A DNA stretch of 46,526 bases, filler included, from Jimgerdemannia flammicorona (Eukaryota), in assembly GCA_003990765.1 (NCBI GenBank). It is 2 parts of 2 records of this genome, joined end to end, with 100 filler letters (N's around TTAATTAATTAA, not from the genome) between each part and the next. Parts side by side here need not be neighbours in the genome. Positions count along the whole stretch, not along the records: positions 1 to 23,214 come from RBNJ01001138.1; 1 more part is not named here. One strand, given 5' to 3'. Within the stretch, counting starts at the first letter, position 1. Each line of letters begins with the position of its first letter. Positions 1,968-41,630 of this stretch are shown here, in pieces. A program made the position numbers and the translations under genes. Below the pieces are notes generated by a model, which ran no database searches, was not told where the DNA came from, and worked only from the letters and a program-made list of their open reading frames with translations.

Positions 1968-2078
1968 GTGTGGTAGACCGACTCGCCAAATACCTCATCC
2001 CAGAACACAACTACCAAAGCAATTCAACGCAACACAACAACCCATCCTCAAAACCCCCAACCCACACCAACCACAATC

Positions 2079-2843
2079 ATGTCTTTCACCATCGTCCTCG
2101 CCGCCGCCGCCCTCATCGCTCTCTCCACCGCCAACCCCTTCAGCCCCCGCCAGCAACAACAGCAAATGCCTTTAGCTGAACAACCTTCCATGGACCAGAC
2201 GGGCAATCTCGATCAATCGCTCCTCCGGGAGCAACAACCTATGACGGGAGGGTCCCCGTTCGGCCAAGGGTTCCCGTTTGGCGGACAGGCGTTCCCTTTC
2301 GGGGGGCAGCAGATCGGTGGCGGGCTCCCGGCCTACAACCTCGGCGGGCAGCACATCGCGGACGAGGCAAAACCCTACCTCGCGGAGACGGGCAATGTCC
2401 ACCCGGCGAGCGGAATCCGGGTCAATAACCTCAATGGCGTCGTCGTCAATATTCCTGTTGCGCCCACTGGCACCGAGGAGGGTGCTCTGCCCACTGGCAC
2501 CGAGGGTGCTCTGCCCACTGGCACCGAGGGTGCTCCGCCTACTGGCACCGAGGGTGCTCCGCCCACTGGCACCGAGGGTGCTCCGCCCACTGGCACCGAG
2601 GAAGGTGCTCTGCCCACTGGCACCGAGGAAGGTGCTCTGCCCACTGGCACCGAGGAAGGTACTCTGCCCACTGGCACCGAGGAAGGTGCTCTGCCCACTG
2701 ACACCGAGGTGGGCGCTCAGCCTACCGGCATTGCTCAACCTACGGGCACTGAGATGGGTGCTCAACCTACCGGCATCGAGGCTGGGCCTGGCGCGGGTGG
2801 TGCTGCTTTGAGTGACACCAAGATTGCCTCTCCTTCTGCCTAA
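2079..2843 (+). CDS. Secreted protein (254 aa) with a Gly/Phe-rich segment and ~13 PTGTE(E)GA(L/P) repeats; probable O-glycosylated cell-wall or spore-surface protein
   Basis: Intronless ORF; hydrophobic signal peptide MSFTIVLAAAALIALSTA-NP; good Kozak context (caatcATG); Thr/Pro/Glu repeat tail. Confidence 0.85.
   Translation: MSFTIVLAAAALIALSTANPFSPRQQQQQMPLAEQPSMDQTGNLDQSLLREQQPMTGGSPFGQGFPFGGQAFPFGGQQIGGGLPAYNLGGQHIADEAKPYLAETGNVHPASGIRVNNLNGVVVNIPVAPTGTEEGALPTGTEGALPTGTEGAPPTGTEGAPPTGTEGAPPTGTEEGALPTGTEEGALPTGTEEGTLPTGTEEGALPTDTEVGAQPTGIAQPTGTEMGAQPTGIEAGPGAGGAALSDTKIASPSA
2463..2784 (+). repeat. Coding minisatellite with 24/27-bp units (CCCACTGGCACCGAG[GAA]GGTGCTCTG)
   Basis: Directly visible tandem units, degenerating towards the 3' end. 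Confidence 0.95.
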
Positions 2844-3317: not shown

Positions 3318-5941
3318 ATGCATCTGGCAAGGAGACTCTCGCAGTCAAAATATACCATTCTACGACCCTCGCTGCTGTTGACAACCTCAAATGCCACACA
3401 ACCCCCCCGCATGTCCCCACGATTCCTTCTGGCTGGTAAGTAATACGCGAACCTCCACGCAACACGCGTGCATCGTCGCGTCCTCTGACTCCCCCCCCCC
3501 GCCATTCCCCACAAAGTCCCTACACGTTCCTCCGCCTCCACAGCCATAGCCACCGCCTCCACCACCACCGCGTCCGACACCACCACTGCGTCCAATACCA
3601 CCGCCGCGTCCAACACCACCGCCGCGTCCAACACCACCGCCGCGTCACCCACCAAGCCTCGGTTCACACCCTTCCCTTTCGTCCGGGATACGTACCCGGC
3701 GGACCCGCTGACGGGCTATAACCGGGAGCTCGACGCCCTCGTTTCCGGCAAGCACTTCGGCTCGGCCCATACCATCGATCAGGTGCTGCGGGTATGCGTG
3801 CGGATGAGTGAAAACATGGTGTGGCCCGACCTGACGACGTACAACCTTTTGCTGAAAACGTACGCCTACTTCGGCAAGGCCGACGAGGCTTTTCAAATTA
3901 TCACGGAGATGGAAAACGCTGAGAAGAAGAAGAGGCAAGTCAAGCCCGACACCCTGTCGTACAACTTGCTGCTCTTGGTACGTGTTCGATTGTTTCCTCT
4001 TCATCCCTCTCGATCGCGTTGACCCGTCCTTCATCTCATCCCAGCCCGCCTAACAAACGACCTCACTATCCCCTCCAACTTCAGGCCTGCGTCGTTCAGT
4101 GCAACACCCTAAAGCAACACCTTGCCCTCGAGAAGATGCATGCTGCTGATCTGCAGCCGAACGCAATGACCTACCAGCACCTTATCAGGGGGATGTGCAT
4201 GAACGGGGAGCTGGAGCGTGCGTTGGATACGCTGCGCGACCTGCGCGACCAGGGGACCATCCAGCCCACGCTGCTCTCATACGACGCCCTGCTACGGGCC
4301 TGCATCGACGTCCACGAGAGCCAGTTGGCGTTCGAACTGCTCAGGGAGGCTGAGATGTATCATAGGGGCGCCGGCGGGTTCCCGAAAATGTATCTAGAGG
4401 TCATGAGGGTGTGCGCAGAGGATGGGCTGGTAGGTTTTTGCTCGGATTAGTTGGTTTGAGGATGTAAATGTTTTGTTGTCTGCTTTCTGTTTGTGGATAC
4501 TCAGGTGCGGCGCTCCATGCAAAGCATGCATACATGTACTCAGCCTTCTCAATTCCACTCCCTCCCTCACAAACGCCAGTACGAACCCGTCCGCTACTGC
4601 TGGACCAAGATCTTCCAAGAGCTTCACTGGTGTCCCGACCAAGGCCTCTGCCTGCTAGTCCTCAACGTAGCAGGCGACAATGCCGACCCTAGACTCGCAT
4701 CTGAGGTGATCCAACATATTGGCAACCATGGATACCGGTACTCTGAACCGCACTTCGCCTCCCTCCTCCAAGCCTTTGCCGCCATCAAAGACCTCAAGAG
4801 CGCCTTCTCAATCCTCGACATCATGCGCACGTTCGGCGTCCTCCCAGAAAAAGAAACTGCCTCTCCGATCCACTTCGCCATCCGCGACGACATCATCGCG
4901 ATCGACAATGCCTACTACGCCCTTGAGGAGCTTCGTCGCGACGGCAAACCCGTCGACGTCATTGCGCTCAACGTCATCATACACTCCTGCGCCGTCGCTG
5001 GAGACCTTGGCCGCGCGCTTGCCACGTTCCGCGAGGCCGACGCGCTCGGAGTGACTCCCGACGTGGACACATACAATGCCGTGCTGGGAGCGTGCGTGCG
5101 GGCGCGAAATCGTGCGGCGGGGGATGAGCTTGTGAAGGAGATGCGTGCTGCGAATGTGAAACCAAATGTGATGACCTATTCGCGGATGATTATGCTGTGT
5201 TGTACGCAGAAGGATTATGATGACGCGTTTAAGTTCCTCGAGGAGGTGAAGGGGTACGGGATTGTACCGCTGGAAGGTTGTTATGTGACGCTAGTGAAGA
5301 AGCTGGCGAGGGAGAGGGACCCACGCGTGCATATTGCGTTGGAGGAAATGGAAACGTTCGGATATAAGGTTGAAAAGGGATTGAGGGAGTTTGTGCAGTC
5401 CGGAGGGGTTAACGAGTATGAAGTGCCCAAGGGGGCAGATGGATATGGCGGAATGGAGGTGAGTATGGAGGTAGAGGCGCAGACGATGGGTCCCGAGCTG
5501 CAGTCGAGAGAGAGGGGGGATGATGAGAAGTTGAATGGCGGAGGGGTAGAAAGGAGGAAGTGGGATGGCGATCGCGGGGGCGGGGGACAGCGAGGTGCGT
5601 GGCAGCAACGGAAGGAGCCGCAGGGCAATTGGTCGCCGCAGCTCGATTGGCTGCGAGAGCAAGGTTCGGGCAATCGGAGGGAGCGGAGTCGTGACCCAGT
5701 GAGACGAGAGCAGGGGGATAGGCCAGTGCGTAGGGAGCGGGACCGCGATGAGGCAGGTGGCCAGCGACACAAAGGAGACTGGAAGGAGTGGAGTCGCTAC
5801 CCTGAGTGGATGGAGCAAGACGAGCCGCCGCCGCGCAAGGAGCCCTTGGATAGGAAGAGATACGGGAAGCAGAGCGAGGGTGCGCGGGATGCCGGAGAGA
5901 CTAGACTACGGGTGTCGCGGGATCGGTACGCGGACAAATGA
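3318..5941 (+). CDS. Pentatricopeptide-repeat (PPR) protein, probably mitochondrial. Exons approx. 3318-3435, 3517 (or 3544)-3977, 4085-4429, 4580-5941
   Basis: Multiple PPR motifs (PDLTTYNLLLKTYA, PDTLSYNLLL, PNAMTYQHLIRGMC, PDVDTYNAVLGACV, PNVMTYSRMIMLCC). Donors GTAAGT 3436, GTACGT 3978 and GTAGGT 4430 with in-frame AG acceptors. Arg/Ser/Leu-rich N-terminus without acidic residues (MHLARRLSQSKYTILRPSLLL) resembles a mitochondrial presequence. Confidence 0.88.
3561..3650 (+). repeat. 18-bp coding repeat (TTAASN-like, ~4-5 copies) in PPR exon 2
   Basis: ACCACCGCCGCGTCCAAC units. Confidence 0.8.
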
Positions 5942-7159: not shown

Positions 7160-8050
7160 CTTAAGAAACACTCCCGGGTCCCGGTCCCAATTTGTTAGGC
7201 GCCCGACCCGACAACCCACCCCATGGTCAGAATCCAATACCATGGCAGGGGGGAAAAAGACGCCAATTTATAAATAGCGTTTTGGCGCTAGAATCTGTCG
7301 GTATCCCAAAAAGCAAATAGAAACCGGTTCTTCAGCCTTTATATTACAGCGGCGACGAGACCGTCCCCCCAATCTGCATCGGGGATTCAACGACGTTGAT
7401 AATTGTGTGATTGTGTTCAGGGAAAGCACCGGATAGCATTTCTCGCATGGTATCCTTAAACAACACATGCAGGGGCCGAAAATAATGGCAATTAGAATTC
7501 CTGGTGCATCGGTGGTTCCGCAAAAAGGCAAGTGCGATAGTGTCAATGTCATTGTCATCAACGCTAGTTCCATCAAGCCATGCATGCAGGCTCACCAATT
7601 CAGACTCCCAGCGTCCATCTACCGTTTCCCTTTAGATTCCCTGTCATCACGCTTTCGCTTCCCGTCCCCCCTCCTGCAGATAGCTCAGGAACTTTTCCGT
7701 GTTCAAGCGGCCGAGTGTGCAGATTCTGGTGAAATGTTTTATCTGCTTCAACATCTTGTGAATCCTGTAGCCTTGTCGCTTGCTGAAAATGAGAGATGGG
7801 AGAAATGGGAGCTTAAGTAGGCAAAATACAATACTTTGCTGAGAATATTTGCCAGACGATACGGACAAGGTTTTGAAAACAAGGGCGCTTTCTAGACGGC
7901 CTTCGTGATTCCAGAGTTGGTAGAGTTGGTGTACCATATCCTGGATTACCATTTCCGGAAACCATAATTGGACTATAAGTATCAATGGAGTATTTAGATA
8001 CTCTTGCAGAACAAAATGAGGCACGTTGCCGCGTTTGACGATGGATATCT
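6550..8050 (-). pseudogene. Possible degenerate multi-exon gene of unknown product
   Basis: Coding-like minus-strand stretches (e.g. VNCVLCLEPHDGQPHFPYVHLDSRKAFKLNF*DGDLDIKDALFIENPYKTFH) broken by stops; intron-like acceptor ATTTGCAG near 8050. No recognisable domain. Confidence 0.25.
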
Positions 8051-9033
8051 GCAAATAAATAAATAAATAAATAAATAATAATATATATTTTTTTCTTTTT
8101 TTTTTTTTTTTTTTTTTAAAAAAAAAGCACCGTGGTGAGTGCTGGGTAAGCGACAATAACAGTATTGGTACTTTGTCGTAACGATAGAAGACAACACGTA
8201 AACTACAGTGAAAATCCATTCACGGGTCGAATTTCTCCAAATGTGATTTATTTTGCCAATTCTAAGCGTTAAACTAGCTCGTTTGTTTTTCGTTTAGTTC
8301 AGCATAGCCTTCTCCATCGTACCAGAATGTAGTTCGAGGCGCAAAGTAGCAAATGTCCACTGCGTTTTTTTTTTTTTTTACTCTTGATTGCCTGGCGTAA
8401 TCATCGACGTCAAATAAACCTCGTCGGCACACAGTCTGGTAGAGCAAGGTGAGGCCAGATGGCTGGTATTGTTGACATCGTTTGTTGTGTGAATTGAATT
8501 GTAAAAAGGATATTGTTGTAATTACTTCTGATCCAATTCAACGCGTCAGTGACGTCACCCGAATCGGGTGTGGTGACTATTTTGGAGGACTATTTTGGAG
8601 ACGTGGTTCTTTCGCGTTTCAATCACAACAAACAACACCACTCATCGTCCTATCTACTTTGCCAACGACAAAGCTCAGAAAAGAGTATTACGATAGCCCA
8701 CACATCACTGACGCGTCGTGAAAGAGTCTCGTAGCCAATTAACAAAGTCAACAGCGAGGCACAATAGTCGAATATGCCAAACGACACAGAACCGGAGAAA
8801 TCGGTGAGTTGAACACTCGAATGCCACCACTCAAATGCCGTACACTACATCGAGTCTTAGGACCCCCAGCGATCTTGCAACCGTCGTTCACTCTCCATTT
8901 TAACTTTCAGATCCCCCCCAAACCGGCCCTACGGCCCCCATCAACGTTGTCCACATACACATCCTCTTCCCTTCCAACGCTAACTTCCCGCCTCCCAACA
9001 CCCAACATCCGCTCCGCCACACCAAGCACCGAA

Positions 9034-12000
9034 ATGCCCCCCCCTCAACCCTCCCGACTGGCCCGCCCAACGTCCAGCTCCTCCGGCACGACCAAACGGC
9101 CAGAATCTCAAGGTGACCCGCCGGCGCCACCACCCTCGGGCCTCAAACGCCCCGCTTCGCGCGAGCTCGTCCGTGAGACAGGCCCACCTCCTACCTTCGG
9201 CCTCTGCGCTTCCTCGTCGAGCTCGATCCCCGCCACAACCCACTACGATCACGATCTAGTCGATCTGCGCGCCGCCCTTGCGCGTACCGAACACGACCGC
9301 GACGACCTGCGGCGGACGGTAGCCGAAGAGCAGCACGCGGCGCGCATGGCTCGGGAGGAGGCCGAGTCGCACCGTGGCGCCACCGACGTTCTGAAGCTCA
9401 AGCTGGGGACGGCGCAGCGCGATTTCGAAGAGGTGAAGAAAGAGTGCAAGGCCATACTGGAGCAGCAAGAACGCGAGATGGCGCGGAAGCTGGCAGCGAT
9501 TGCGGAGAGGGACGAGCACGAGCGCGAGAGACTCGTCATGGAGGAGGTGTGGAAGGCGCAGGACGTGTGGCAACAGAAGTTGGATGAAGAGGTCAAGAGG
9601 AGGGAGGGCGTCGAAAACAAGTGCAAGGATCTTGAGATCGAGGTGGAGGCTGCAGATAGGGTCGCCGTAGCCATGCAGCAGAGACTCGCGGAGTTAGCGG
9701 CGCAGGTGAAGGGGCTGGAGACAGCAAACGAGAGTCTGGAGAAAGAGAAGAAGATTACAGAGACTACGGCGAAGGAGACAGAGAGGTCGTTGTATGGGGC
9801 GGATGCGTTGGTGAGCGAATTGAGAAGTGAGATACAGCGCAAGGATAGCTCCATATGCGAACTGAAGACACGCCTGACAGAATCCGAGCAAGCACGACGA
9901 GACACAGATGCGCAGCTTCAACAAGCCAAGCTCGTCACCGAAAAAATGTCGTCCCAAAACGCGGAAGAGCTCGCGCGGATGAGGGACCACCACTGGGCTC
10001 TCGAGCGCGACCTCGCCCAGTCTAGCGACCTCGCCGAGTTTTCCGCGAACGAGGCCACCTGTCTGCGTGAACAAGTCACCACGCTAACGGCCCAGCTCGA
10101 CGCCGAGCTCACGAGGCGTACGTGCGTCGAGGAGGTGCAGGCACAGTGTGGCGAAGCCCGTGCCACGGCTGCCGTGCTCGAGGAAACCGTCGCCACGCTG
10201 CGGCGAGAGCTGGAGCAGGCCGGTCAGAATACTCGGCAGGCAGACGGGAACCATACCGCGTGGATGGAGAATCTGGAGAGAGAGCAATCATGCAATAAGG
10301 AGATGGAGAAGCAGCTCGAGCAACACGACGAGACCATGCGGCATCACGAAGCCGAACTGGTGCGCGTCTCAGCCATTTGCAACGTCCAGGAGGACACGAT
10401 CAGAAAGCTGAACGAGAACGCCAGCGCGCTGCAGGGCAAGAAGGCCGAGCTGGAGCGCGCGATCGAGGATGCCATGCACCAGATCGCCTCGTACAAGGAA
10501 GATATGGCGAGATTGCACTCCGACGCCCAAAACACCGAACAAGCGTCGGCCGAGGCGGAACGGTTCCAAGGCGAGATTCACGCGCGCGACGCGGCGATCG
10601 GCGAACTAAACATGAACATAGCAGTGTTGCAAGACGAGCTAGGGGCCGCGCGCGCGAGCATCGACGAGCAGGACGATAGAATCGTTGCCCATGGCGAGGA
10701 TATTGTACGGCTCGAGGCGATGCTTAGGGCCGCGGATGAGAAGGCTGCCGAGCTCGGTGTTCAGGCGCAGAAGATGGCGGTCGAGGAAACAGAAATGCGC
10801 GAAGAGATTGTGACGATGCGGGAGCGATTCACGGAAGCGGACAAAATGGTCTCCGAGTTGAGCGGACGGGTCGTGGGGTTGCAGGCGGCATTGGATGCGA
10901 AGACGGCTGAGGTTGAGGGCATGGTCGGGCAACGGGAGCATGCGGTGGAGGAAGTCAGCAAGCTGAAGGAAGAACTGGCTACCGTGATGGAGTTGAGGGA
11001 TATCGCGGTGAAAAAGTACGAGGAAGAAACCGCCCCTAACGACAGGGCCGCGCAAGCCGCGCAGGGCAAGGTGGATGAACTATCTGCGCAGATTTCGATG
11101 CTGGAGACCGGCACCAAGGAGAAGGCGTCAGAGATCCAGCAGCTCCGACAGCAAGTCTCCGCTGCCCAGAGTACGATCAATGAACTCAACGAGCAGGTGT
11201 CGAACCTGCAGGACGACCTGGGCGCCAACATGTCACAGGCAGACACGGCAGACCAGCTGCGGCAAACTGAGGTCGAGGAGCTGCGGCGCGCCCGGAAGGA
11301 GCTATTGGCATCCGTGACGCAGTGCGAGGACGCCATGCGCGGGTACCGTGAGGAGATTGCGAGGCTGGAAGGCGAAGTACGCGCGAAGGAAGAGATTGTT
11401 CAAAGCCTGGTGGAGCGGGTCGGGTCGTTGGAGGCCGAGAAGGGGCCGACGGAGGAGATCGTGAGACAGTTGAGGTGGCAGGTGGAGAATGCTAATGCGG
11501 TTGTTGAGGATCTGAGGAGCAAGGTTTTGAAGTTGCAGAGTGAGGCTCAAGAACAATCGGGTCATGTTAACGCGTTGATTGAGAGAGACGAAGAAAATAG
11601 GGAGACGATCGACGCTCTGAAGGCAGCGAAACAGGAGCTTAGTGTTCTCGTGGAGCAGAAGGAGCAAGGGATACAACAACAAAAGAGGATCATCGACAGC
11701 ATGAAAACAGACATGCAAAAGCGCGAGGAGATCGCGGTGGAGTTTGAACAGCGCCTCGCGTCATTGCAGGACGAGATAGCCATCAAGGAGGAAGAACACG
11801 GGGCGATCCGCGCCCTGCTTGGCGATCCAGGCATGTCGATGGCGGAAGTTGCCGGCCGGATCGCGGAGACGAAAGCGCAACTCGAGCAGCAAACCTTCCG
11901 CGTCAACGGACTACTGTGCGAACAGGAGGCTGTCCTCGTCCGCGCGCAGGCCGCCCAGGCCGAGACCGCCGCTGAGGTCGAAAGGAAGGAGGAGACAGTT

Positions 12001-15000
12001 CGTCAGTGCGAGGCAGAGCTCGAGCGCGTCCGGGGCGAGCTAGGGAATGCCGAACACGCCGCGGAAGACCTCGTTGAACAGGTGCGGGTGTTGAAGGGTC
12101 AAGTTGCGGTAGCCGAGGAGCGGCAGAAGGAAATCCAGGTGCAGGCGGATGGCGTAGACGAGAGAGTAAGAGTGATGGGTGCACGCGGGCCGGAAGACGA
12201 GGAGGCGTTGACGAGATTGCAGGAGGTGGAGAGAGTGAAGGCGAATTTGGAGGCAGTTATCGCGGAAAAGGAGGCGACGTTGGAACGGTTGAGGGCGGAG
12301 TCAAGTGAGGCGAAGGAGTCGCATGCAGCGATATTGGATGAGTTTAGATCGAGATATGAGGAAGTTCTTCGGACCAATAACGATCTGACTTTGGGCATCG
12401 AACAAGAACGATCTACGGTCGAGTCGCAGCAGTCGAGGCTTGCACAATTGGAGGAAGAGAATACCGGTCAGAAGGAGTCGGTTGATATCTTGTCGGAATC
12501 CTTGGAAGATCTAGAGAACACATTGGCACAACGGGATCGGGATTTGGCGGCGATGAAGCAGAAGATGGATGAACTTGATGGAACGGTCGTTCGGCTTGAA
12601 AGCGAATTGGCATTGGAGAGCACGAGGGCGGCGGACTTGATGGAGAGAGACACGGCTACCCCAGTCCTAGAGATGCAGAGAACCAAGCTCGAAGAACTCG
12701 AAAACTTGTTGATGGCCAAGGTACTCGAAGAGGATGGGTACAAGGCGAAGATTGCCAGCATGGAAGTGACCATGTCTGCGTTGCGTGATGAGATCGAGCA
12801 GATGGGTGTGACGACAATGACCCGGGGGCTTGAGACCGAGCTGCGTGAAGCGACAGAGAAGCTGCGCCTAACCGAACAAATGTACATGGAGAGCGAAAGC
12901 AAAATCAAGGAACTTGAGCAAGAGCTTGGTTCATCCCGGATCGTCGTTACTGAATTGGAATGTAAATGGAGTCAAGCGAAACAGAGCGTCGCTGATATCG
13001 AGGTCGCGTTCTCCGAGGCGTGTGGCAGAGTACAACAGGCTGAAGAAATTATGGCCAAGAACGGAGAAGAGAAGAACGCCCTTATTGCAACAATGGGCGA
13101 TCTCGAGTCGGTGAAGCAGGAGCTGGATTGTTTGTTGGAGACAGAACGGCAACGTCACGTTTCCCGCGATGCCGAGCTAGATAATCTGATGAGGGAGATC
13201 GACAATCAACAGGTTATCATTCAACGCCAAGCTACGAACCTCAGAACCCTCTGCTTCGAATTCGACGAGAAGGCGGCGCTGTTGGACGTTGACTCTCGGA
13301 AGGACAAAGAAGTAATCGAGAACCTCCGTCGTGATCTCGCGGAAGAGCAAAGCAAGTCCAAACAACTCGAGCAGACCGTCGAGGCCAAGAATAAGATGAT
13401 TAAACATCTTGAACTGGACACAAAGGATTACGAGATCACTGTGAAGGAGACAAACGCCACGCTTGCCAAGTTGCGCAACGAAGTGAAAGCCAAGAACGAA
13501 TTGATTGACGAATTGACGGTCAAGGAGGGAGAAAACGCGTCCGAGGCTGCAAAGCAGGTGCAGGAGTTGACGGCTCAATTCGAGACTATCAGGGCCGAGA
13601 ACGCGCATATGCGGGAATTTGCCGATGCAAAAATGGCAGAGATCAAGGTGTTAGCTGCCGAGATGGACGCCTTGCGGAGCCACAAGGATTATCACGATCG
13701 CCGGGTGACCGAATACGATCGGACGGTGCAGAGTCTCAGGGACGAGGTCGAGCGGTTGCGCAGCAAACAATTGGCGCCTGCCGTGGATGAGAGCACGGTG
13801 TGTCGGGTGCGGGAATTGGAGCAATTGGTGGGAAAACAGATGGATGAAATCGTGGGGCTTCGGGCGAGGATGGCGGATGCGGATGAGGCGAAGCGAGATA
13901 TGGAGAGGGAGGTGGCTCGGCTTGAGAAATTGGTGCAGGAGCGCGAGAAGGAGAATGCGGAACTGAACATGAAACTGTCGGAGGTTGAAAGGGTCATCGC
14001 TGCCAAGAAGGCCGAGGTTGACGAGATGAAGGTTGCGATCGACGAATTAAAGCTTGACAGGCAGGATTTGCAGGCAAAGCTTGACGCCGCGGAGAGATCT
14101 GTTAAGAAGCTGGATGCCACCAATGTCGAGCTTGACGCGACGGTCGAGAAATTGCAAGGCTCGTTGAAGGTCAAGACGTCTGAATTGGCCGATCTTAAGG
14201 AGAATCTATCGGTCGACACAGCCAAGAAACTCACGAACGCCCACGAGGAGATCGCCTCCCGACAAACGAAGCTTCGTACTCAAGCCAGCAGCGTCGGTGG
14301 TAAGCAAAAGGAGACTCAACGCGCAGTGGAAACTCTGGAACGCACTGTCAACAATCTGCGAAACAGCGTGCAGCTCAAGGAGACTCAGATTGCCAAATTC
14401 GAGGAGGACGTAAGCGGCCATCTAGAGGCACTTGAAGAACGCGCCAAGACCATTGCGCAATTGGAGGACAAGATCGCTGAGCTTACAGAGATGACCACAA
14501 AGTTGGAAGAAACCTTGCAAAACAACGCGACAGATCAAGAGCACACTGACGACAAGTATATGACAGTGCTGAAAGAGAATCGGAAGCTCAAGGATAAGAT
14601 GGAGTTGTACAAGAAGCAGAACAAAGCGTTGCAGGTCAAACTTCAGGAAGTGCAAGAAAAGCTTTTGTCGGTGCCGGCGTCGTCAGCAGCAGGTCCCGTA
14701 CAGGAAGTCGCTCATCGAGACGGGGTCATTACCGCTTCGCCTAGGGAGCCGAGCGAAGACGACAGGCTGTCGGCTGAATCAACGTCTACATCCGCGAAGT
14801 CAAATGCGCGCAAACGCCCGCTGAGCACCAGCGTCGGCGATTCCGACAGCGACTCGAACAAGCGGCGGATGACCGACAAGACGACACGCGCAACTCCAGC
14901 ACCAAGGCAGACGAGAAGCGCCGCGAACGCGACCGTTGCCGAAGATGGTATCAATTTCGAGATGCGGCGGACTAGGCGCAGTGGTCTGAAGGACGCACCG

Positions 15001-15366
15001 ACGGCCAAAACCGTCGAGTTGGTCATGGAAAAGAAGTTCCCTTCCGATGTCGTTGAGCTTGCGACGGCGGTTGGTTCTCCGTTGCAAGAGGTGACGAACA
15101 TTCGTGGCCCAACCAGCCCTGCGCAGGATAGGAAGAAGGGCACGCAGAAAAAAGATGCCATGGTGCCGACGACGGGAGAGTTGGTCACAGCGGGTGGTGC
15201 GATTAGGAAGATGGGTAGACGGTTGACGGTAGCATTGGGGCCCATGAGGGAGGTGGTGGAGCCCATGAGGGAGGCGGTGGAGCCCATGAGGGAGGCGGTG
15301 GAGCCGAATCAGGGGGACAGGAGCCAGCGGGAGCCGGAGCAGGAAAATCAGTGTGCCCAGCAGTGA
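9034..15366 (+). CDS. Giant intronless coiled-coil protein (~2110 aa from ATG 9034; the open frame extends to 8809) with a disordered tail, NLS and C-terminal CaaX box (CAQQ)
   Basis: 6.3-kb uninterrupted ORF with continuous E/K/Q/L/R heptads. Pro/Ser-rich head; tail with RKRPLS...NKRR, S/T-P sites and terminal ENQCAQQ*. Confidence 0.92.
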   Translation: MPPPQPSRLARPTSSSSGTTKRPESQGDPPAPPPSGLKRPASRELVRETGPPPTFGLCASSSSSIPATTHYDHDLVDLRAALARTEHDRDDLRRTVAEEQHAARMAREEAESHRGATDVLKLKLGTAQRDFEEVKKECKAILEQQEREMARKLAAIAERDEHERERLVMEEVWKAQDVWQQKLDEEVKRREGVENKCKDLEIEVEAADRVAVAMQQRLAELAAQVKGLETANESLEKEKKITETTAKETERSLYGADALVSELRSEIQRKDSSICELKTRLTESEQARRDTDAQLQQAKLVTEKMSSQNAEELARMRDHHWALERDLAQSSDLAEFSANEATCLREQVTTLTAQLDAELTRRTCVEEVQAQCGEARATAAVLEETVATLRRELEQAGQNTRQADGNHTAWMENLEREQSCNKEMEKQLEQHDETMRHHEAELVRVSAICNVQEDTIRKLNENASALQGKKAELERAIEDAMHQIASYKEDMARLHSDAQNTEQASAEAERFQGEIHARDAAIGELNMNIAVLQDELGAARASIDEQDDRIVAHGEDIVRLEAMLRAADEKAAELGVQAQKMAVEETEMREEIVTMRERFTEADKMVSELSGRVVGLQAALDAKTAEVEGMVGQREHAVEEVSKLKEELATVMELRDIAVKKYEEETAPNDRAAQAAQGKVDELSAQISMLETGTKEKASEIQQLRQQVSAAQSTINELNEQVSNLQDDLGANMSQADTADQLRQTEVEELRRARKELLASVTQCEDAMRGYREEIARLEGEVRAKEEIVQSLVERVGSLEAEKGPTEEIVRQLRWQVENANAVVEDLRSKVLKLQSEAQEQSGHVNALIERDEENRETIDALKAAKQELSVLVEQKEQGIQQQKRIIDSMKTDMQKREEIAVEFEQRLASLQDEIAIKEEEHGAIRALLGDPGMSMAEVAGRIAETKAQLEQQTFRVNGLLCEQEAVLVRAQAAQAETAAEVERKEETVRQCEAELERVRGELGNAEHAAEDLVEQVRVLKGQVAVAEERQKEIQVQADGVDERVRVMGARGPEDEEALTRLQEVERVKANLEAVIAEKEATLERLRAESSEAKESHAAILDEFRSRYEEVLRTNNDLTLGIEQERSTVESQQSRLAQLEEENTGQKESVDILSESLEDLENTLAQRDRDLAAMKQKMDELDGTVVRLESELALESTRAADLMERDTATPVLEMQRTKLEELENLLMAKVLEEDGYKAKIASMEVTMSALRDEIEQMGVTTMTRGLETELREATEKLRLTEQMYMESESKIKELEQELGSSRIVVTELECKWSQAKQSVADIEVAFSEACGRVQQAEEIMAKNGEEKNALIATMGDLESVKQELDCLLETERQRHVSRDAELDNLMREIDNQQVIIQRQATNLRTLCFEFDEKAALLDVDSRKDKEVIENLRRDLAEEQSKSKQLEQTVEAKNKMIKHLELDTKDYEITVKETNATLAKLRNEVKAKNELIDELTVKEGENASEAAKQVQELTAQFETIRAENAHMREFADAKMAEIKVLAAEMDALRSHKDYHDRRVTEYDRTVQSLRDEVERLRSKQLAPAVDESTVCRVRELEQLVGKQMDEIVGLRARMADADEAKRDMEREVARLEKLVQEREKENAELNMKLSEVERVIAAKKAEVDEMKVAIDELKLDRQDLQAKLDAAERSVKKLDATNVELDATVEKLQGSLKVKTSELADLKENLSVDTAKKLTNAHEEIASRQTKLRTQASSVGGKQKETQRAVETLERTVNNLRNSVQLKETQIAKFEEDVSGHLEALEERAKTIAQLEDKIAELTEMTTKLEETLQNNATDQEHTDDKYMTVLKENRKLKDKMELYKKQNKALQVKLQEVQEKLLSVPASSAAGPVQEVAHRDGVITASPREPSEDDRLSAESTSTSAKSNARKRPLSTSVGDSDSDSNKRRMTDKTTRATPAPRQTRSAANATVAEDGINFEMRRTRRSGLKDAPTAKTVELVMEKKFPSDVVELATAVGSPLQEVTNIRGPTSPAQDRKKGTQKKDAMVPTTGELVTAGGAIRKMGRRLTVALGPMREVVEPMREAVEPMREAVEPNQGDRSQREPEQENQCAQQ
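15241..15303 (+). repeat. 21-bp coding repeat (PMREAVE, 3 copies) just before the CaaX tail
   Basis: CCCATGAGGGAGG(T/C)GGTGGAG x3. Confidence 0.9.
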
Positions 15367-15863
15367 TGTCGGTATAAGGTTGGATGGAGAACACATTATT
15401 GTTTTCCGGGGGCTCGTGTTCCCCTCAGTGAAGGGCTGCTTTTCTATTTTTTTTTTTTTTGTTTGTGTTCAAAGTTGATAATGTTGGGAGAAACATCCTT
15501 CGCGTGACATCACTAAACAGATGTCACGATATCCAAATCGGGTATTGATGCGCGCTATTCCCCATACGTATAATTGTGTCTGAACTGGTCTTTATATAAA
15601 TGTTTGGGACTTTTGTCTGGGCTATGCGCGAGGTTCGCGATCGGCTAGGGGTGAGCTAGTTTCACTCAAGAGTCCCAATACATTGATATGCTGTAATGTA
15701 ATGTCAACACAATGATATAATAACGCGCACAATGATATATATACATGCCATTCTGATGGCGAATAAAATGAGTCAGAACATGCTCGTGGCGAGAATCTCG
15801 AATAAAATAAATAAAAGGGAGGGCCGCTTTGTTCATCCTCGCGCCCAACTGGTGCGATCGTCG

Positions 15864-17606
15864 TCATGTTCTCGAGGACGTCGAGGTCGACGCGTCCGGC
15901 ACCATCGACAACGTCGCAAACTCACCACTCTGCGCCGCCTCCACCTCCACTGCATTCCCGGCCCCCACCGCCAACTCCTGCGCCGCACTCTCCGTACTCG
16001 CCTCTTCCGCCACCACGGTACCTTCATCATCCATCTGCGCCGTCACGCCATCACCATCAATCTGGACCACGACATCGTGTGGCCCCGAATCAACATCTGG
16101 AATACCGGCTTCAAGCAGCTCGGTCGGGACGTCGGCATCAGACTTCTCGGGATCACGAAGCTCAGGGGGTAGGCAGTCGAATTTACAGATCGGGCAGAGG
16201 GCCGTTTCAGTCAGGAGCCAGGGGTCTGCAGAGAAAGAAGGCGAGAAAATGAGTGAATAAGTACGGCGAGAGGTTCGGGGAATGCCTCCTAAAGTTTAAA
16301 CTGCGAGTGGAAAACACAGACAAACTCTCCAATACACACTCACCCACACACTCCCTACAAAACCCGTGCTGACACGGTAAAATTCTGACTGTCTCCTCGT
16401 CCCCAATCTTCCACGTCTGCGCATCGGCCAGCTCCTCGAGGCAGATGGCGCACTCCGAGTTCTTGCACACGCCCGGCTCGTAGCGCACCACGCGGAACGT
16501 CGCGAGCACCTCAGCGGGGATCAGCGGGGTGCCGCGGCGGAGGATCGCCACGGGCGCGGGCGGCGGGTGTGCTGGGAAATTGGACCGGATGCGGCGCCAT
16601 TTGTATAAGATGAAGCCTAGAGGGAGGGGAGGGCGGGAAAGGAGGGAGATGAGCCGAACATATAAAGGTGGAAAATTCTCCTATAAGTATTCGCACACCA
16701 CTCCATGCCTATTCACTCACCCACCAAAGAGGCCCCTCCAAAAATGATAACCCACGGCCACCCCTTTTGAAAACCAAACACAGTCGCCTGCTCCGTAGTC
16801 AAATGGGTCTGAACATTCACGATCTCCAATCTCACAAACTCCCTCACCCCCTCCGGAGCCACCGCATCCCTCCTCTGCACGACATCGGTCAACAATATGG
16901 CACCATACACTCCCAGAACGAATATAGTGGGCACAAATCCCTTCGCCGAGGCCGACACGCCGTCCGGTATGTCGTTGTCAGCGTACTTCGTCGTGTTGAC
17001 GTCGTCCCCGGAATAGGACGGCGTGGTCTGGTTGACGTTGTTCCGAATCACGGCCCCCACTAGCGTAAGGCCGAGCGAAGCGCTGGTGTCAAGGGCGTTC
17101 ACGAGTTTTGTGTGCCACGTACAGAGGCCACCGTGTTTGATCAGGGCGATGATCGGGGTCGAGGTAAGAGCGCGGGGAAGCGGGAGAGAGAGTAAGTTGA
17201 AGGTCATGAAGGGGAGGGTTGTGGCATTACAAGAGAGGTCGAAATCGAGGAGGATGCCCTTGAGGGGAGAGAGGGGGGAGAGGGTGAAAATATTGATTTT
17301 TTTTCTTTTTTCATGTCGATCGTCACCTTCCGGAAAAAAAAAAAAGTTCTCTTGACTACCTACACGCACTAACGCATTATTCGAGTCGTTAGGCACTACG
17401 TTGACGATCCAGTCGTTGTATTTTTTCATGGGGATTGCGGGATTCTCATTGTCGAGGAAGCTCCCGTTGCCCTTGGCCGGGTCATAGATCACTCGTCGCT
17501 GAAAGAAGTACGTTGCGCCTGGACAGCAGTACGCGCCCACTCGGGAGGCAGGGATCAGGCACAAGGCCGCGAACAAGCGCCACATGCGACGGCGAGGGGT
17601 GACCAT
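15864..17606 (-). CDS. PA-TM-RING E3 ubiquitin ligase (RNF13/RNF130/RMR-like), paralogue A. Exons approx. 17606-17370, 17258-16721, 16616-16344, 16225-15864
   Basis: Signal peptide; PA domain (IALIKHGGLCTWHTKLVNA...VGAVIRNN...VPTIFV); TM segment (WPWVIIFGGASLVGFILY); basic stop-transfer; spliced RING CAICLEEL...[27 protein letters not shown]; three GT-AG introns keep the frame. Confidence 0.88.
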
Positions 17607-18063
17607 GATGATGGTGTCGGTGCGAGTGGCCCGACGGGCAGTTCATGGACGCGTCGAAGAAAGAAGAAAAAAAAGGCGACGTCAATTCCCTGTGGTTTCT
17701 ACGGCCGCCTCGGTGTGGGGCCCGATAACGAACCAGGATCGGAGCATCTTATCGCCTGCGCCACCAAGGACAAGAGGAATCTTCTGTCACATCCGACTGT
17801 CATCCCCTCCCTATTAGGCAGTATGTTTACCACAATGAGCATCGGAATGGCTAAGGATGGATGAACATTTACAAGGAATGATGGATGTGGCAGCCCTCTG
17901 GATATTGTACACCCTGTCCCTGGACGGGAGAGGTATAATGCATTACAAAGGAAATATGTGCAATGTTTCTCGGTGCGTTCATGCGGAAATAATGACGAAA
18001 AGCAAAAAAGATTTCAGGCGTTGGCACCATCAAAAAACCAAGACAACCCCACTCAAGACAACG

Positions 18064-19900
18064 CTATTGTATGGTCTCCTTTGCGACAACGCGCTCTTCC
18101 TCCTTACCCTGCTCACTCGCCTCCCCCTTCCTCTCCTCCAGCATACTCCGCCTCTCCCTCTCCCTCGCCTCGACGTCCAACCTGCCGACCTGCTCCCATA
18201 TTACGCCCGTGTCGGGCTTGCTCGTCAGTGCTGCCAACTCGATGATAGCTACACCCTCGTCCGCGCCCGACGTGGTGGTAGACGTAGGCTCCAACACGAC
18301 GCCCTCCTCCCCCGCGGCCGACGGTTTGGGGGGTGAACAATCGAATTTGCAGATCGGGCACTGCGCGATTTTGGTTGAGAGCCATGGGTCTTTTGGGGTG
18401 AAGAAGATATTAGCAGGGGATTCAGAAATAAAAACAAAATAAAATAAAAAATCTTTCAAATCTCGCAAACCATAGTCGAAAAAACATAACCCACCGATAC
18501 ACTCAACGCAGAATCCATGCCCGCAAGGTAGAACACGCACGGTGCTTTCTCCTTCGATAAAGTCGTCGAGGCAGATGGCACAGGACTGGTTCTTGGTGGC
18601 TTCGACGTCGTACAAGCGGACGATAAAGGTGTCGAGAACGTCCTTGGGCAACATGCAGAGGTTGCGGGCCTGAATGCGGCGGCGCCGTATGAGACGCCGG
18701 ATGTAGCGGCGATGCAGGCGGAAGATGAGGGTGGCTGTTGGGTGGAGGAGTTGGGGATATGAGTTTGCGATGAGAAGGAAAAATTCGTGGGAAAGACCTT
18801 CTATGCGGGATATCGAGGACGACCGAATTTGTGAATGGCGAAATAGTAGATACATTACCCAACAGCATTGTTATCCCCGCCATCACAATCCCGGGCACCC
18901 AGTTCTTGAGGAACGACATCCAGAACCCGCCCGTGTTAGCCGCCGCGCTACTATTGAACATCCTGATCCTGACAAAATCTCTGCTCCCGGGCCTCCAATA
19001 CACGGACCCATTGAAAGCCAAATTGTGCAACGCCAGCCCAAGCGAGTTCCCGATGAACACGGTAGGGACCCAGTAGAAGTTTTGTGCGTTTCCCAAAGCG
19101 GCGATCGAGGAGTCGATGTCGTTGTCCGGATAGATGCTGATGTTCCAAGCGTTAGAAGACAGGACGCGGCTGGTGATGGACAGGTCCGTCTGGTTGTCGT
19201 ACAGAATCACACCGGTGAGGATTAGGCCCGCAAACGAGGCCGTCATTTTCGCGCTCTCTATCTTGGTGGTGAACGTGCAGTCACCGCCGCGTTGGATGAG
19301 CGCGATGATTGGCGAAGTCTGAATGATTGACAACGTCGTGTTATCAAGGTTGTTGTCGGTAAGGAAAGCCGTGGATGGAGTGAACGCGCAGGAAGTGTTG
19401 AAATGGAGGAGGAGGCCCTGTGGATTAGGGGGAAGGGGGGAGCTTGGAGGGTTAGATCGCGAGCTCTTTTGGAGGACGTCAGAGGCTTTTTTTGACGCAT
19501 GTAAACACAAGCGCGCGCCTCGCACTGCAATAAAAAGTTTGCGCTCCCATCAACCCAATACGAGTTCAAATACTGTAGGACCACGAACCTTCAATCCCAC
19601 GCCCCCCATGTACTGCTCGTTCGGCACGACGTTGATGATCTTGTCGTCCGTGAATGCATAACTCCCAGCGAGGGTGTCGATCTGATCAATGACAGGGTCC
19701 GCATTCTCAGGCTCCTCGGGGTTCAGGTTGATGAAGACGAACTCCTGGAACATGGTGGCGCCGTTATTTGCACAACAATCAGCCTTCACGGTGGAAGGAA
19801 CGGAAGCGAGTACGAGCAGCACGAGCCACGCACACAGACATATTGACAGACGCGACGGGTGTGAGGCGTGACGGTTCGGCATCAATGGGTATGTGTACAT
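18064..19900 (-). CDS. PA-TM-RING E3 ubiquitin ligase, paralogue B. Exons approx. 19900 (or 19882)-19589, 19417-18859, 18734-18495, 18389-18064
   Basis: Signal peptide (LSICLCAWLVLLVLASVPSTVKA); PA domain (IALIQRGGDCTFTTKIESA...GVILYDN...VPTVFIG); TM segment; RING CAICLDDFIEGESTVRVLPCGHGFCVECIDPWLSTKIAQCPICK; introns at the same positions and phases as paralogue A. Confidence 0.9.
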
Positions 19901-20182
19901 GTGTGCTCCTTTGTAGCGATGCGGTGGAGGTGTTTTGAGAGTGCGGAGTGGCGCATGGAGGGGGGAGGCTTTCATGGCTGCGGATTAGTAAATCAGTGAG
20001 CGTTAAAGACGGGTTTGGAAGTCGTCTGACAAGGCAACCAATCACATTACCAGTACACAAATCACCTACATTCACAGCAGCAGCCATGTCATTCTCTCCC
20101 CTTGTCCCCGCCCGGATTTCTTGCCCGAGGCGACGTTCCCAGCACTTCTTCCACAAGAGTCAGAGTTTTCCCCTTCGGGCCT

Positions 20183-40815: not shown

Positions 40816-41630
40816 CTAAACGACATTGACAAGGCACTTAGCCGCGGCATAGTCGCAGCAGGCGTCTTTGTTAGCACAATATGCGATGTCGCAATCCTCA
40901 CATATATTGGCTGCCACATGTTTGCAGTTCTCATATGCCACGTTATCACAAAACTGATCGGCATTGTTGAAAGCGGTGCTGGAGTTTACCACGCAGGAGC
41001 CAGGTGCCGTAGTCATAGAGGTAGCCGGCGCCATAGCCGTAGCAGTCGTATGGAGCGCAAGCACCGTAGCTGTAGGAATAGCCACCACCGCGCTTGACCT
41101 TCTTGTTGATGGCGTTGAAGCAGTTGAGCTTGCTATCCTTGGAGCATGCGTCGTTGTTGGCGCAGTAGGAGGCATCGCAATCCTTGCAAATTTCGTAGGC
41201 TTCGTGTTCACAGTTTTTGTGCGCCACATAGCTGCAGTATTGGTCGGTATTATTTCACGCCGCATTGGAGCCCACCACGCACAAGTCGTAGGGGCCACAG
41301 GTTCCACAGGCGCCGAAGCCATATGGGTAGCCGGCGCCATAGCCGTAGCAGTCGTATGGAGCGCAAGCGCCGTAGCTGTAGGGATAGCCACCACCGCGCT
41401 TTATCTTGTTGATGACGTTGAAATAGCTGAGCTTGTTATCTTGGAGCATGTGTCGTTATTGGCGCAGTAGGCGGTATCACAGTCCTTACAATGTTGCAGG
41501 CTACGTGTTCACAGTTTTCGTACGCCACGTTGTTCAGCGTTGTTGCACGCTATGTCATAGTTTACCGCACAAGCGCCGTATGGGTAGCCATAGGCGCCGA
41601 ATCCTTCGTAGGTGTAACAAAGTGTCCTTT
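40816..41630 (-). pseudogene. Cys/Tyr/Gly-rich tandem-repeat precursor (3 units of ~85-105 aa separated by KR), disrupted
   Basis: Units read KR-GGGY(P/S)YSYGACAPYDCYGYGAGY...NN.DQ.C..VA..NC.H.A..IC.DCD..YCAN.D.C...FN.INK; about 4 frameshifts and one in-frame TGA (41255-41257); 5' end abuts the Gypsy RT at ~41686. Confidence 0.8.

Follow-up and report, generated by a model that had tools for sequence, protein, structure and literature searches.

A giant motorless coiled-coil protein ending in CAQQ in the fungus Jimgerdemannia flammicorona, a possible counterpart of CENP-F beside Spindly and CENP-E

The closest described counterparts of the gene reported here are the kinetochore proteins Spindly (SPDL1), CENP-E and CENP-F as well as, at the nuclear envelope, the lamins, Dictyostelium NE81, Drosophila kugelkern and Tpr/Mlp1/Mlp2. 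CENP-F is defined by binding to the kinase domain of Bub1 and by kinetochore localisation, and its origin as a paralogue of CENP-E has been proposed (PMC6028960); comparative work restricts it to animals and the unicellular kin of animals (PMC5579357). Whether fungi possess a corona has scarcely been studied (PMC10630089), and the CaaX box of Spindly is already known in chytrids (PMC4436830). A preprint on the Mucor kinetochore reports CENP-A and CENP-C in Endogonales, and its available text does not mention Spindly, CENP-E or CENP-F (10.1101/706580). Lamins and NE81 share the order rod, basic cluster resembling a nuclear localisation signal (NLS), CaaX box, and the fungal kingdom is described as lacking intermediate filament (IF) proteins (PMC3258179). 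Here we describe a gene for a 2110-amino-acid (aa) protein of the early-diverging root fungus Jimgerdemannia flammicorona, on contig C1138 (positions 1–23214 of the window, the whole stretch of 46,526 nucleotides analysed). It is transcribed and encodes a rod without a motor that spans about 1810 aa (some 270 nm if continuous), followed by a disordered basic tail and a credible farnesylation motif, in a genome that contains ROD, Spindly and a CaaX-bearing CENP-E. From this layout and company we propose, at a rough probability of 0.43, that the protein may be a farnesylated nuclear or mitotic scaffold working like CENP-F, in a third slot beside Spindly and CENP-E.

The open reading frame (ORF) at 9034–15366 (plus strand) is free of stop codons, and its translation ends REPEQENQCAQQ, that is ...EPEQENQCAQQ before the stop. 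The same frame is open already from 8743, and an in-frame ATG at 8821 gives 2181 aa; this start was chosen in the NCBI model RUP43294.1, a 99% match to the ORF. The added segment is possibly 5' untranslated region, because its GC content at third codon positions is lower and a pyrimidine stands at -3. A second J. flammicorona model, RUS33509.1, matches the ORF at 100% outside two model-only 'introns', and both models end in CAQQ. The two in-frame introns (about 13312–13524 and 13705–14169) are unsupported, with an unspliced contig of run X1 over 12950–13800 and a contig of run X2 within 13895–14188.

Contigs of three runs were mapped on 7500–16500; X1 and X2 are RNA only by guess, and X3 is a metatranscriptome. 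The X1 and X2 contigs splice out the intron 16225–16344 of the neighbouring gene and leave 7500–8402 without cover. An X3 contig (15273–15433) passes the stop codon unspliced, with one differing letter whose place is not listed. No splice joint near the 3' end of the ORF was reported among the mapped contigs of the three runs, and the splicing to a different C terminus envisaged in the first-pass annotation was thus not seen. A joint at 10673–10891 in X1 was not accepted as splicing because its ends are CG..CA. Loose ends of X1 contigs match the sequence of a paralogue, so relatives of the gene are transcribed too. Among the 38 variant rows listed for the ORF (15 further rows are not shown), 25 are non-synonymous and 13 synonymous; the resulting ratio of non-synonymous to synonymous polymorphism (pN/pS) of about 0.55 indicates a constrained but fast-evolving frame. 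The ORF is real and transcribed.

The first-pass annotation had described a short Pro/Ser head and about 1900 aa of coiled coil with no motor or other globular domain. The head and the giant coiled coil are borne out, with a rod of about 1810 aa and not about 1900. Almost every 140-aa window between about aa 70 and 1880 shows a strong heptad period of about 3.5, which disappears further on. In an AlphaFold model of the last 610 aa, computed without an alignment, long helices run up to aa 1878 and are followed by coil at pLDDT<50, with two short terminal helices and no strands, globular fold or Ig fold. The absence of a motor or globular domain also held in Pfam: none of four families on the whole protein reached its cut-off, and none did in seven overlapping pieces. 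There was no kinesin match in the protein, and the upstream gene on the plus strand encodes a pentatricopeptide-repeat (PPR) protein. The sequence contains no hydrophobic (transmembrane) anchor.

All motifs named earlier (NLS-like pattern, PLQEVTN, KEN, S/T-P) are present, at unequal weight. The bipartite basic pattern arises in 11% of tail shuffles and carries moderate weight; a SPLQEVTN-type motif arises in 0.1%. The D-box consensus includes an Arg, which this motif lacks. The three KEN sequences are slightly more than expected by chance (P=0.02), yet all lie within predicted helices. The tail has four S/T-P sites, no more than chance would give (P=0.40), and not one fits S/T-P-x-K/R; the first S/T-P of the protein, counted from the 9034 start, is at aa 1209. 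KEN and SP/TP sites therefore contribute little.

With a Cys at -4 and an accepted aaX, CAQQ is a plausible farnesyl acceptor, as proposed before on the strength of the terminal Gln. The same box of Arabidopsis J3 is farnesylated in vivo (PMC5769771). In a yeast Ydj1-CXXX screen the EF values are 1.51 for CAQQ, 1.61 for CASQ (the box of Ydj1), 1.68 for CPQQ (the box of Spindly) and 0.13 for SASQ, and the HM score of CAQQ is 4.78 against a cut-off of 3 (PMC10320760). The screen gives canonical cleaved motifs an EF of 0.4–0.5, and CAQQ is accordingly more likely to stay uncleaved and carry only the farnesyl group. The fungus's own Ydj1-type Hsp40, described below, has the same end. By chance a C-terminal [EQ]CxQQ is expected about 8e-6 times per protein end at the composition of the ORF, and CxxQ 6e-4 times. 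A genome search with the pattern [EQ]CxQQ-stop gave 234 matches against 26 in the control; 100 were listed and 46 loci read. Most of the 234 come from a repeated element with CAATGTAGACAACAATRA on many contigs, where the preceding frame has only about 10 codons. With a narrowed pattern, which omits x codons beginning with A and from which short last exons may escape, 3 of 36 matches close recognisable genes: the 2110-aa protein, Spindly and a Ydj1-type Hsp40.

Spindly was located through this C-terminal pattern; an exact DNA pattern for the Spindly motif had no match in the genome contigs. The gene (C3305:2484-5225, plus strand) has a 913-aa frame in which a CC1 box (AAEIGQKLL) and the Spindly motif (LFSEVEDKR) are both present and which closes with KQLYVKRQNVRPNECHQQ (ECHQQ), and by eye it matches the Spindly of the chytrid Spizellomyces motif by motif (PMC5579357 Dataset EV1). 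The available Spindly set of PMC5579357 includes chytrid, blastoclad and Coemansia members and no Mucoromycota entry, so Endogonales may keep what Mucor and Mortierella lost. The 2110-aa protein resembles Spindly in its coiled coil, disordered tail and [QE]CxQQ end, QCxQQ being the end of vertebrate Spindly; however, it exceeds double the length of Spindly. Neither the CC1 box nor the Spindly motif, for which the first-pass annotation had suggested looking, occurs in it (with either start) or in its paralogue. With a separate canonical Spindly on C3305 and no similarity to it, the idea that the 2110-aa protein is itself the fungus's Spindly is refuted, and we regard its chance as negligible.

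A CENP-E gene lies on the minus strand of C5223 (about 11400 to 2725). It begins with a CENP-E-type kinesin-7 motor signature followed by coiled-coil exons, and its probable last exon ends EKEAAECNQQ, the exon chain having been read by eye without RNA support. CENP-E, a kinesin-7 of Obazoa, shares with the 2110-aa protein a long rod and a tail ending in C-x-Q-Q. The tail motifs are also alike by eye to those of Monosiga, Capsaspora and Thecamonas CENP-E, and the CENP-E and CENP-F tails of unicellular species in Dataset EV1 have similar basic/PLS clusters and L-x-[DE]-I-x-N-like motifs and close with an acidic-polar run followed by C-x-[QNP]-Q (PMC5579357). A motorless duplicate of the CENP-E stalk and tail could account for the common C-terminal pattern, the more so as paralogy with CENP-E has been proposed for CENP-F itself (PMC6028960), and the best phmmer score, 14.6 bits, was found between aa 1500–1880 and the CENP-E locus. 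This score is near those of heptad-shuffled controls (up to 11.6), however, and the other six of seven segments gave 2–8 bits, as the controls did. CENP-E also has many exons and a repeated RIERGDY-like unit in its stalk, in contrast to the single-exon ORF, and we consider such a duplication very improbable.

A Pfam search of the genome for the kinesin motor (PF00225) gave 49 matches, none of them on C1138. A KipA-type kinesin-7 was seen on C4013. A 2302-aa kinesin frame on C263 was rejected as CENP-E, being kinesin-4-like; the final open frame of this gene (minus strand, 8830-1227) comprises 1977 aa, has a long coiled coil and a Pro-rich tail, and stops after KSKFMCF (Cys at -2).

The C-terminal region of ROD/KNTC1 was found at C4182:4940-5720 (minus strand), where Rod_C scores 53 bits against a cut-off of 24. 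The genome thus keeps ROD, Spindly and CENP-E, which favours the earlier description of the protein as a corona-type candidate; the parts of that description that did not stand are identity with Spindly and membership in CENP-F or the lamins. With separate Spindly and CENP-E genes and ROD, an animal-like farnesylated triad would be complete. Since the 2110-aa protein is at control level against the Spindly and CENP-E loci and has neither CC1 box nor Spindly motif, it is a third long rod ending in CxQQ.

CENP-F (Holozoa; PF10481, PF10473, PF10490) resembles the 2110-aa protein as a giant motorless coiled coil with a basic disordered tail and a non-canonical farnesylation motif at the C terminus, which reads ENCKVQ in human and PECNNQ in Salpingoeca (PMC5579357 Dataset EV1). 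It also co-occurs with Spindly and CENP-E, as the 2110-aa protein does. Unlike CENP-F, the 2110-aa protein has no MSW..EEWK N-terminal domain, no PF10490 match (at E<=5 in the seven pieces) and no detectable homology, and it is about 1000 aa shorter than human CENP-F. PF10473 (CENP-F_leu_zip) is the top Pfam match in two of the seven pieces, below the cut-off (24 and 26.8 against 34.5 bits). In the ESM Atlas a query with the tail placed a CENP-F C-terminal cluster at rank 10 (0.86). Atlas matches are treated as leads only, because the recognition values (1659 and 1582) are below the useful level.

Several results weigh against a CENP-F-like role. All 12 CENP-F sequences in the available Dataset EV1 (animals, Salpingoeca, Capsaspora) start with MSW and none of the 12 is fungal (PMC5579357). 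A regular expression for MSW..EEWK was negative on the 2110-aa protein from both starts, and PF10481 (CENP-F_N) was not among its Pfam matches; CENP-F membership therefore fails. PF10481 also had 0 matches in the genome, a result uninformative on absence. The Atlas and Pfam similarities are at a generic coiled-coil level, and with the whole protein the Atlas gave an Mlp1 cluster at rank 13 (0.89, 139/256 features; again a lead only). The Zwilch part of the suggested ROD-Zwilch check returned an empty genome search, which says nothing of absence. The Ydj1/DNAJA-type Hsp40 of the same fungus (contig C21437, minus strand) ends GMQCAQQ, with the same last five residues, and so the motif is not specific to the corona. 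No homologue outside J. flammicorona was found in the searches made, and the paralogue (model RUP30865.1) ends RRISEN without a CaaX box.

The homologue searches with the word index found only J. flammicorona with the tail region (2 of 7632 candidates; length-limited) and, length-limited and with candidates partly scored, with the core of the paralogue (3 of 7996) and the rod's leading 420 aa (2 of 8000). A full HMMER scan with the tail had two matches, both J. flammicorona. In two metagenome scans none of the pattern stretches, 590 in one and 297 in the other, was confirmed. No literature on the 2110-aa protein or on a fungal CENP-F was found in a search that fell short of most subscription papers. 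The 2110-aa protein is a real, undescribed orphan of known layout.

RUP30865.1, the sole paralogue model that looks intact, has 1518 aa, is 40% identical over 1374 columns, and keeps the central rod block, the basic NLS-like clusters and SPLQEVTN. Each of the 14 other contigs fetched from hit lists is matched in tblastn (E<1e-3) by the 2110-aa protein, the paralogue or both. Most of these copies are broken by stops or shortened by internal deletions, and frames of 497 and 628 aa persist in two. No CaaX was seen in the two shortened copies or in the fragments on the 14 contigs, none of which extends to the 3' end. Beside the copies no transposase ORF was recognised by eye, without a formal scan, that would suggest a transposon-borne spread. 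Repeated ends and a dUTPase-like frame mark an insertion, about 8.6 kb long, that interrupts the copy on C1319.

This family history bears on the view that the gene belongs to a fast-evolving, lineage-specific coiled-coil family in which CAQQ is incidental, for example a read-through past a stop still used by the paralogue. The end of the paralogue falls about where the PMREAVE repeat of the 2110-aa protein starts, the CaaX-less copies fit this view, and so does the pN/pS ratio. However, [EQ]CxQQ would arise by chance about 1e-5 times per C terminus, and the Ydj1-type gene ends in the identical five residues. Loss of the CaaX box in duplicates is also the simpler direction, because many copies carry premature stops. 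We consider an incidental CAQQ decidedly unlikely.

A farnesylated scaffold of the inner nuclear envelope or pore basket, lipid-anchored like an analogue of lamin, kugelkern or Tpr and without a kinetochore role, is unlikely as well. Its attraction is the order rod, NLS-like cluster, CaaX, as in lamins and NE81 (PMC3258179). However, the rod is about five times longer than that of NE81 (370 aa), Filament (PF00038) scores 12.2 against a cut-off of 40, and there is neither a Pfam match to the Ig-like lamin tail domain nor an Ig fold in the single-sequence AlphaFold model of the tail. Lamins and NE81 have an IF rod of about 350–370 aa preceded by a CDK1 (cyclin-dependent kinase 1) site, which the 2110-aa protein lacks, and its CaaX box is a polar CAQQ in contrast to the aliphatic CLIM type. 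Both the NLS-like pattern and the CaaX box are in the tail, the former at the shuffle frequency given above. Lamin membership is thus not supported.

Tpr, Mlp1 and Mlp2 also combine a rod of about 1800 aa with a disordered, NLS-bearing tail, and the Mlp1 cluster of the Atlas points the same way. We know of no Tpr protein that carries a CaaX box. Among the test families PF07926, PF25481 and PF25785, the scores stayed below cut-off (TPR_MLP1_2, PF07926, 19.1 against 36; Nucleoprot-TPR 17.9 against 27), and PF25785 was not listed. Genome searches with PF07926 and Nucleoprot-TPR did not return the ORF locus; the latter was empty and uninformative on absence. The genome's own Tpr gene was not located in these searches, a point in favour of this reading; against it, homologue searches with a Tpr orthologue ought to bring up relatives, and none appeared. 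A PF07926 match on C1582 was rejected as Tpr, being a sub-threshold match in a long coiled-coil DUF7801 protein.

Tethers often combine a long acidic rod with a basic tail. The protein could also act elsewhere than in the nucleus, as a farnesylated adaptor or long tether at the spindle pole body, at the Golgi or in organelle transport, its basic tail binding microtubules or membranes and not importin. The ease with which shuffled tails yield an NLS pattern and weak matches to HMMR_N, ADIP, Fez1 and ATG16 are consistent with this, whereas no GRIP, GRAB, PACT, CM1, PH or Uso1-head family was found at E<=5 in any piece (the match lists of the terminal pieces being complete). The dynein-adaptor CC1 box and the Spindly motif are missing too, and the conserved SPLQEVTN suggests cell-cycle control; we find a tether outside the nucleus quite unlikely. 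Neither is the protein a clear golgin, Mlp1 or Uso1 orthologue, the outcome that the first-pass annotation had named as contrary to its proposal. A PDB sequence search with the tail gave five matches (E 0.1–0.2), all to one PI3K coiled coil.

For a CENP-F-like scaffold, we speculate that a species-restricted, dimeric coiled coil would be farnesylated at its C-terminal Cys, probably without aaX cleavage as in Ydj1 and Spindly, and that the basic tail would direct its nuclear import. During mitosis, the tail with its farnesyl group and the last coiled-coil segment may dock on the outer kinetochore or a fibrous corona of ROD, Spindly and CENP-E, possibly after docking on the nuclear envelope, while the long rod could serve as a spacer or adaptor to microtubules. 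SPLQEVTN would mark the protein for turnover in mitosis by the anaphase-promoting complex/cyclosome (APC/C). With regard to CENP-F, the protein would be either an orthologue that shed its N-terminal domain and diverged past recognition or an independent invention; no sequence kinship is demonstrable.

A wider proposal, which we put forward only tentatively and with the odds somewhat against it, is that Endogonales build a fibrous corona resembling that of animals, in which Spindly, CENP-E and, as a counterpart of CENP-F, the 2110-aa protein are the three farnesylated rods. CENP-F would then come from the opisthokont ancestor, with its N-terminal microtubule-binding domain lost in fungi, or else the third rod would be an independent invention. 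With ROD, a CxQQ-ending Spindly and CENP-E and a third giant rod of this kind in one fungus, both a corona in fungi and the question of where CENP-F came from would become open to test. If the protein instead lined the nuclear envelope, it would be an analogue of a farnesylated lamina in a kingdom described as without IF proteins (PMC3258179). The gene is an orphan in the searches made, and its role is read from layout and company.

Table 1. Coordinates of the features of the coiled-coil gene in the window and contigs with related copies
Feature	Position	Strand	Basis or remark
Candidate 71-aa in-frame N-terminal extension	8821..9033	+	Alternative start
RNA-type contig cover, gapped	8549..15433	+	Runs X1, X2, X3
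Single-exon ORF, 2110 aa, giant coiled-coil protein without motor	9034..15366	+	Translation; NCBI model matches
Pro/Ser-rich head, aa 1-69	9034..9240	+	No CENP-F MSW..EEWK motif, no S/T-P before rod
Acidic heptad coiled-coil rod, aa 70-1878	9241..14667	+	Heptad period and AlphaFold; KEN at aa 1639, 1722, 1847
Rod block best conserved against paralogue (63% identity), also in degraded copies elsewhere	13024..14100	+	Alignment
Tail of about 230 aa, disordered, with a basic stretch at aa 1920-2065 (29 K/R against 16 D/E)	14668..15363	+	AlphaFold model, composition
Bipartite-NLS-like RKRPLS...NKRR, 14-aa spacer	14809..14868	+	Partly kept in paralogue and copies
SPLQEVTN, D-box-like without Arg	15076..15099	+	Identical in paralogue
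21-bp tandem repeat, 3.3 copies, coding PMREAVE	15236..15305	+	In the tail
CAQQ and stop, non-canonical (Ydj1-type) farnesylation motif	15352..15366	+	Sequence, transcript contig, literature motif data
Dispersed degraded or internally deleted copies	C1319, C28876, C1101, C1633, C4901, C8381, C3578		tblastn
Dispersed degraded or internally deleted copies, continued	C5519, C13642, C22, C19104, C12561, C6969, C7161		tblastn

The upstream PPR gene contains an intron and occupies 3489–5941 (plus strand). Further upstream, 1977–2843 (plus strand) encodes a secreted-looking protein that carries a signal peptide and two kinds of repeat, GGxPF and tandem PTGTEG, and has no Pfam match. Downstream, at 15864–19984 (minus strand), there are two tandem genes for PA-domain, transmembrane, RING-type ligase-like proteins; the nearer one, which holds the spliced intron 16225–16344, is richly covered by RNA contigs. 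Outside contig C1138, the window contains a Cys-rich repeated frame with CDYAAAKC-like units at 40816–41470 (minus strand).

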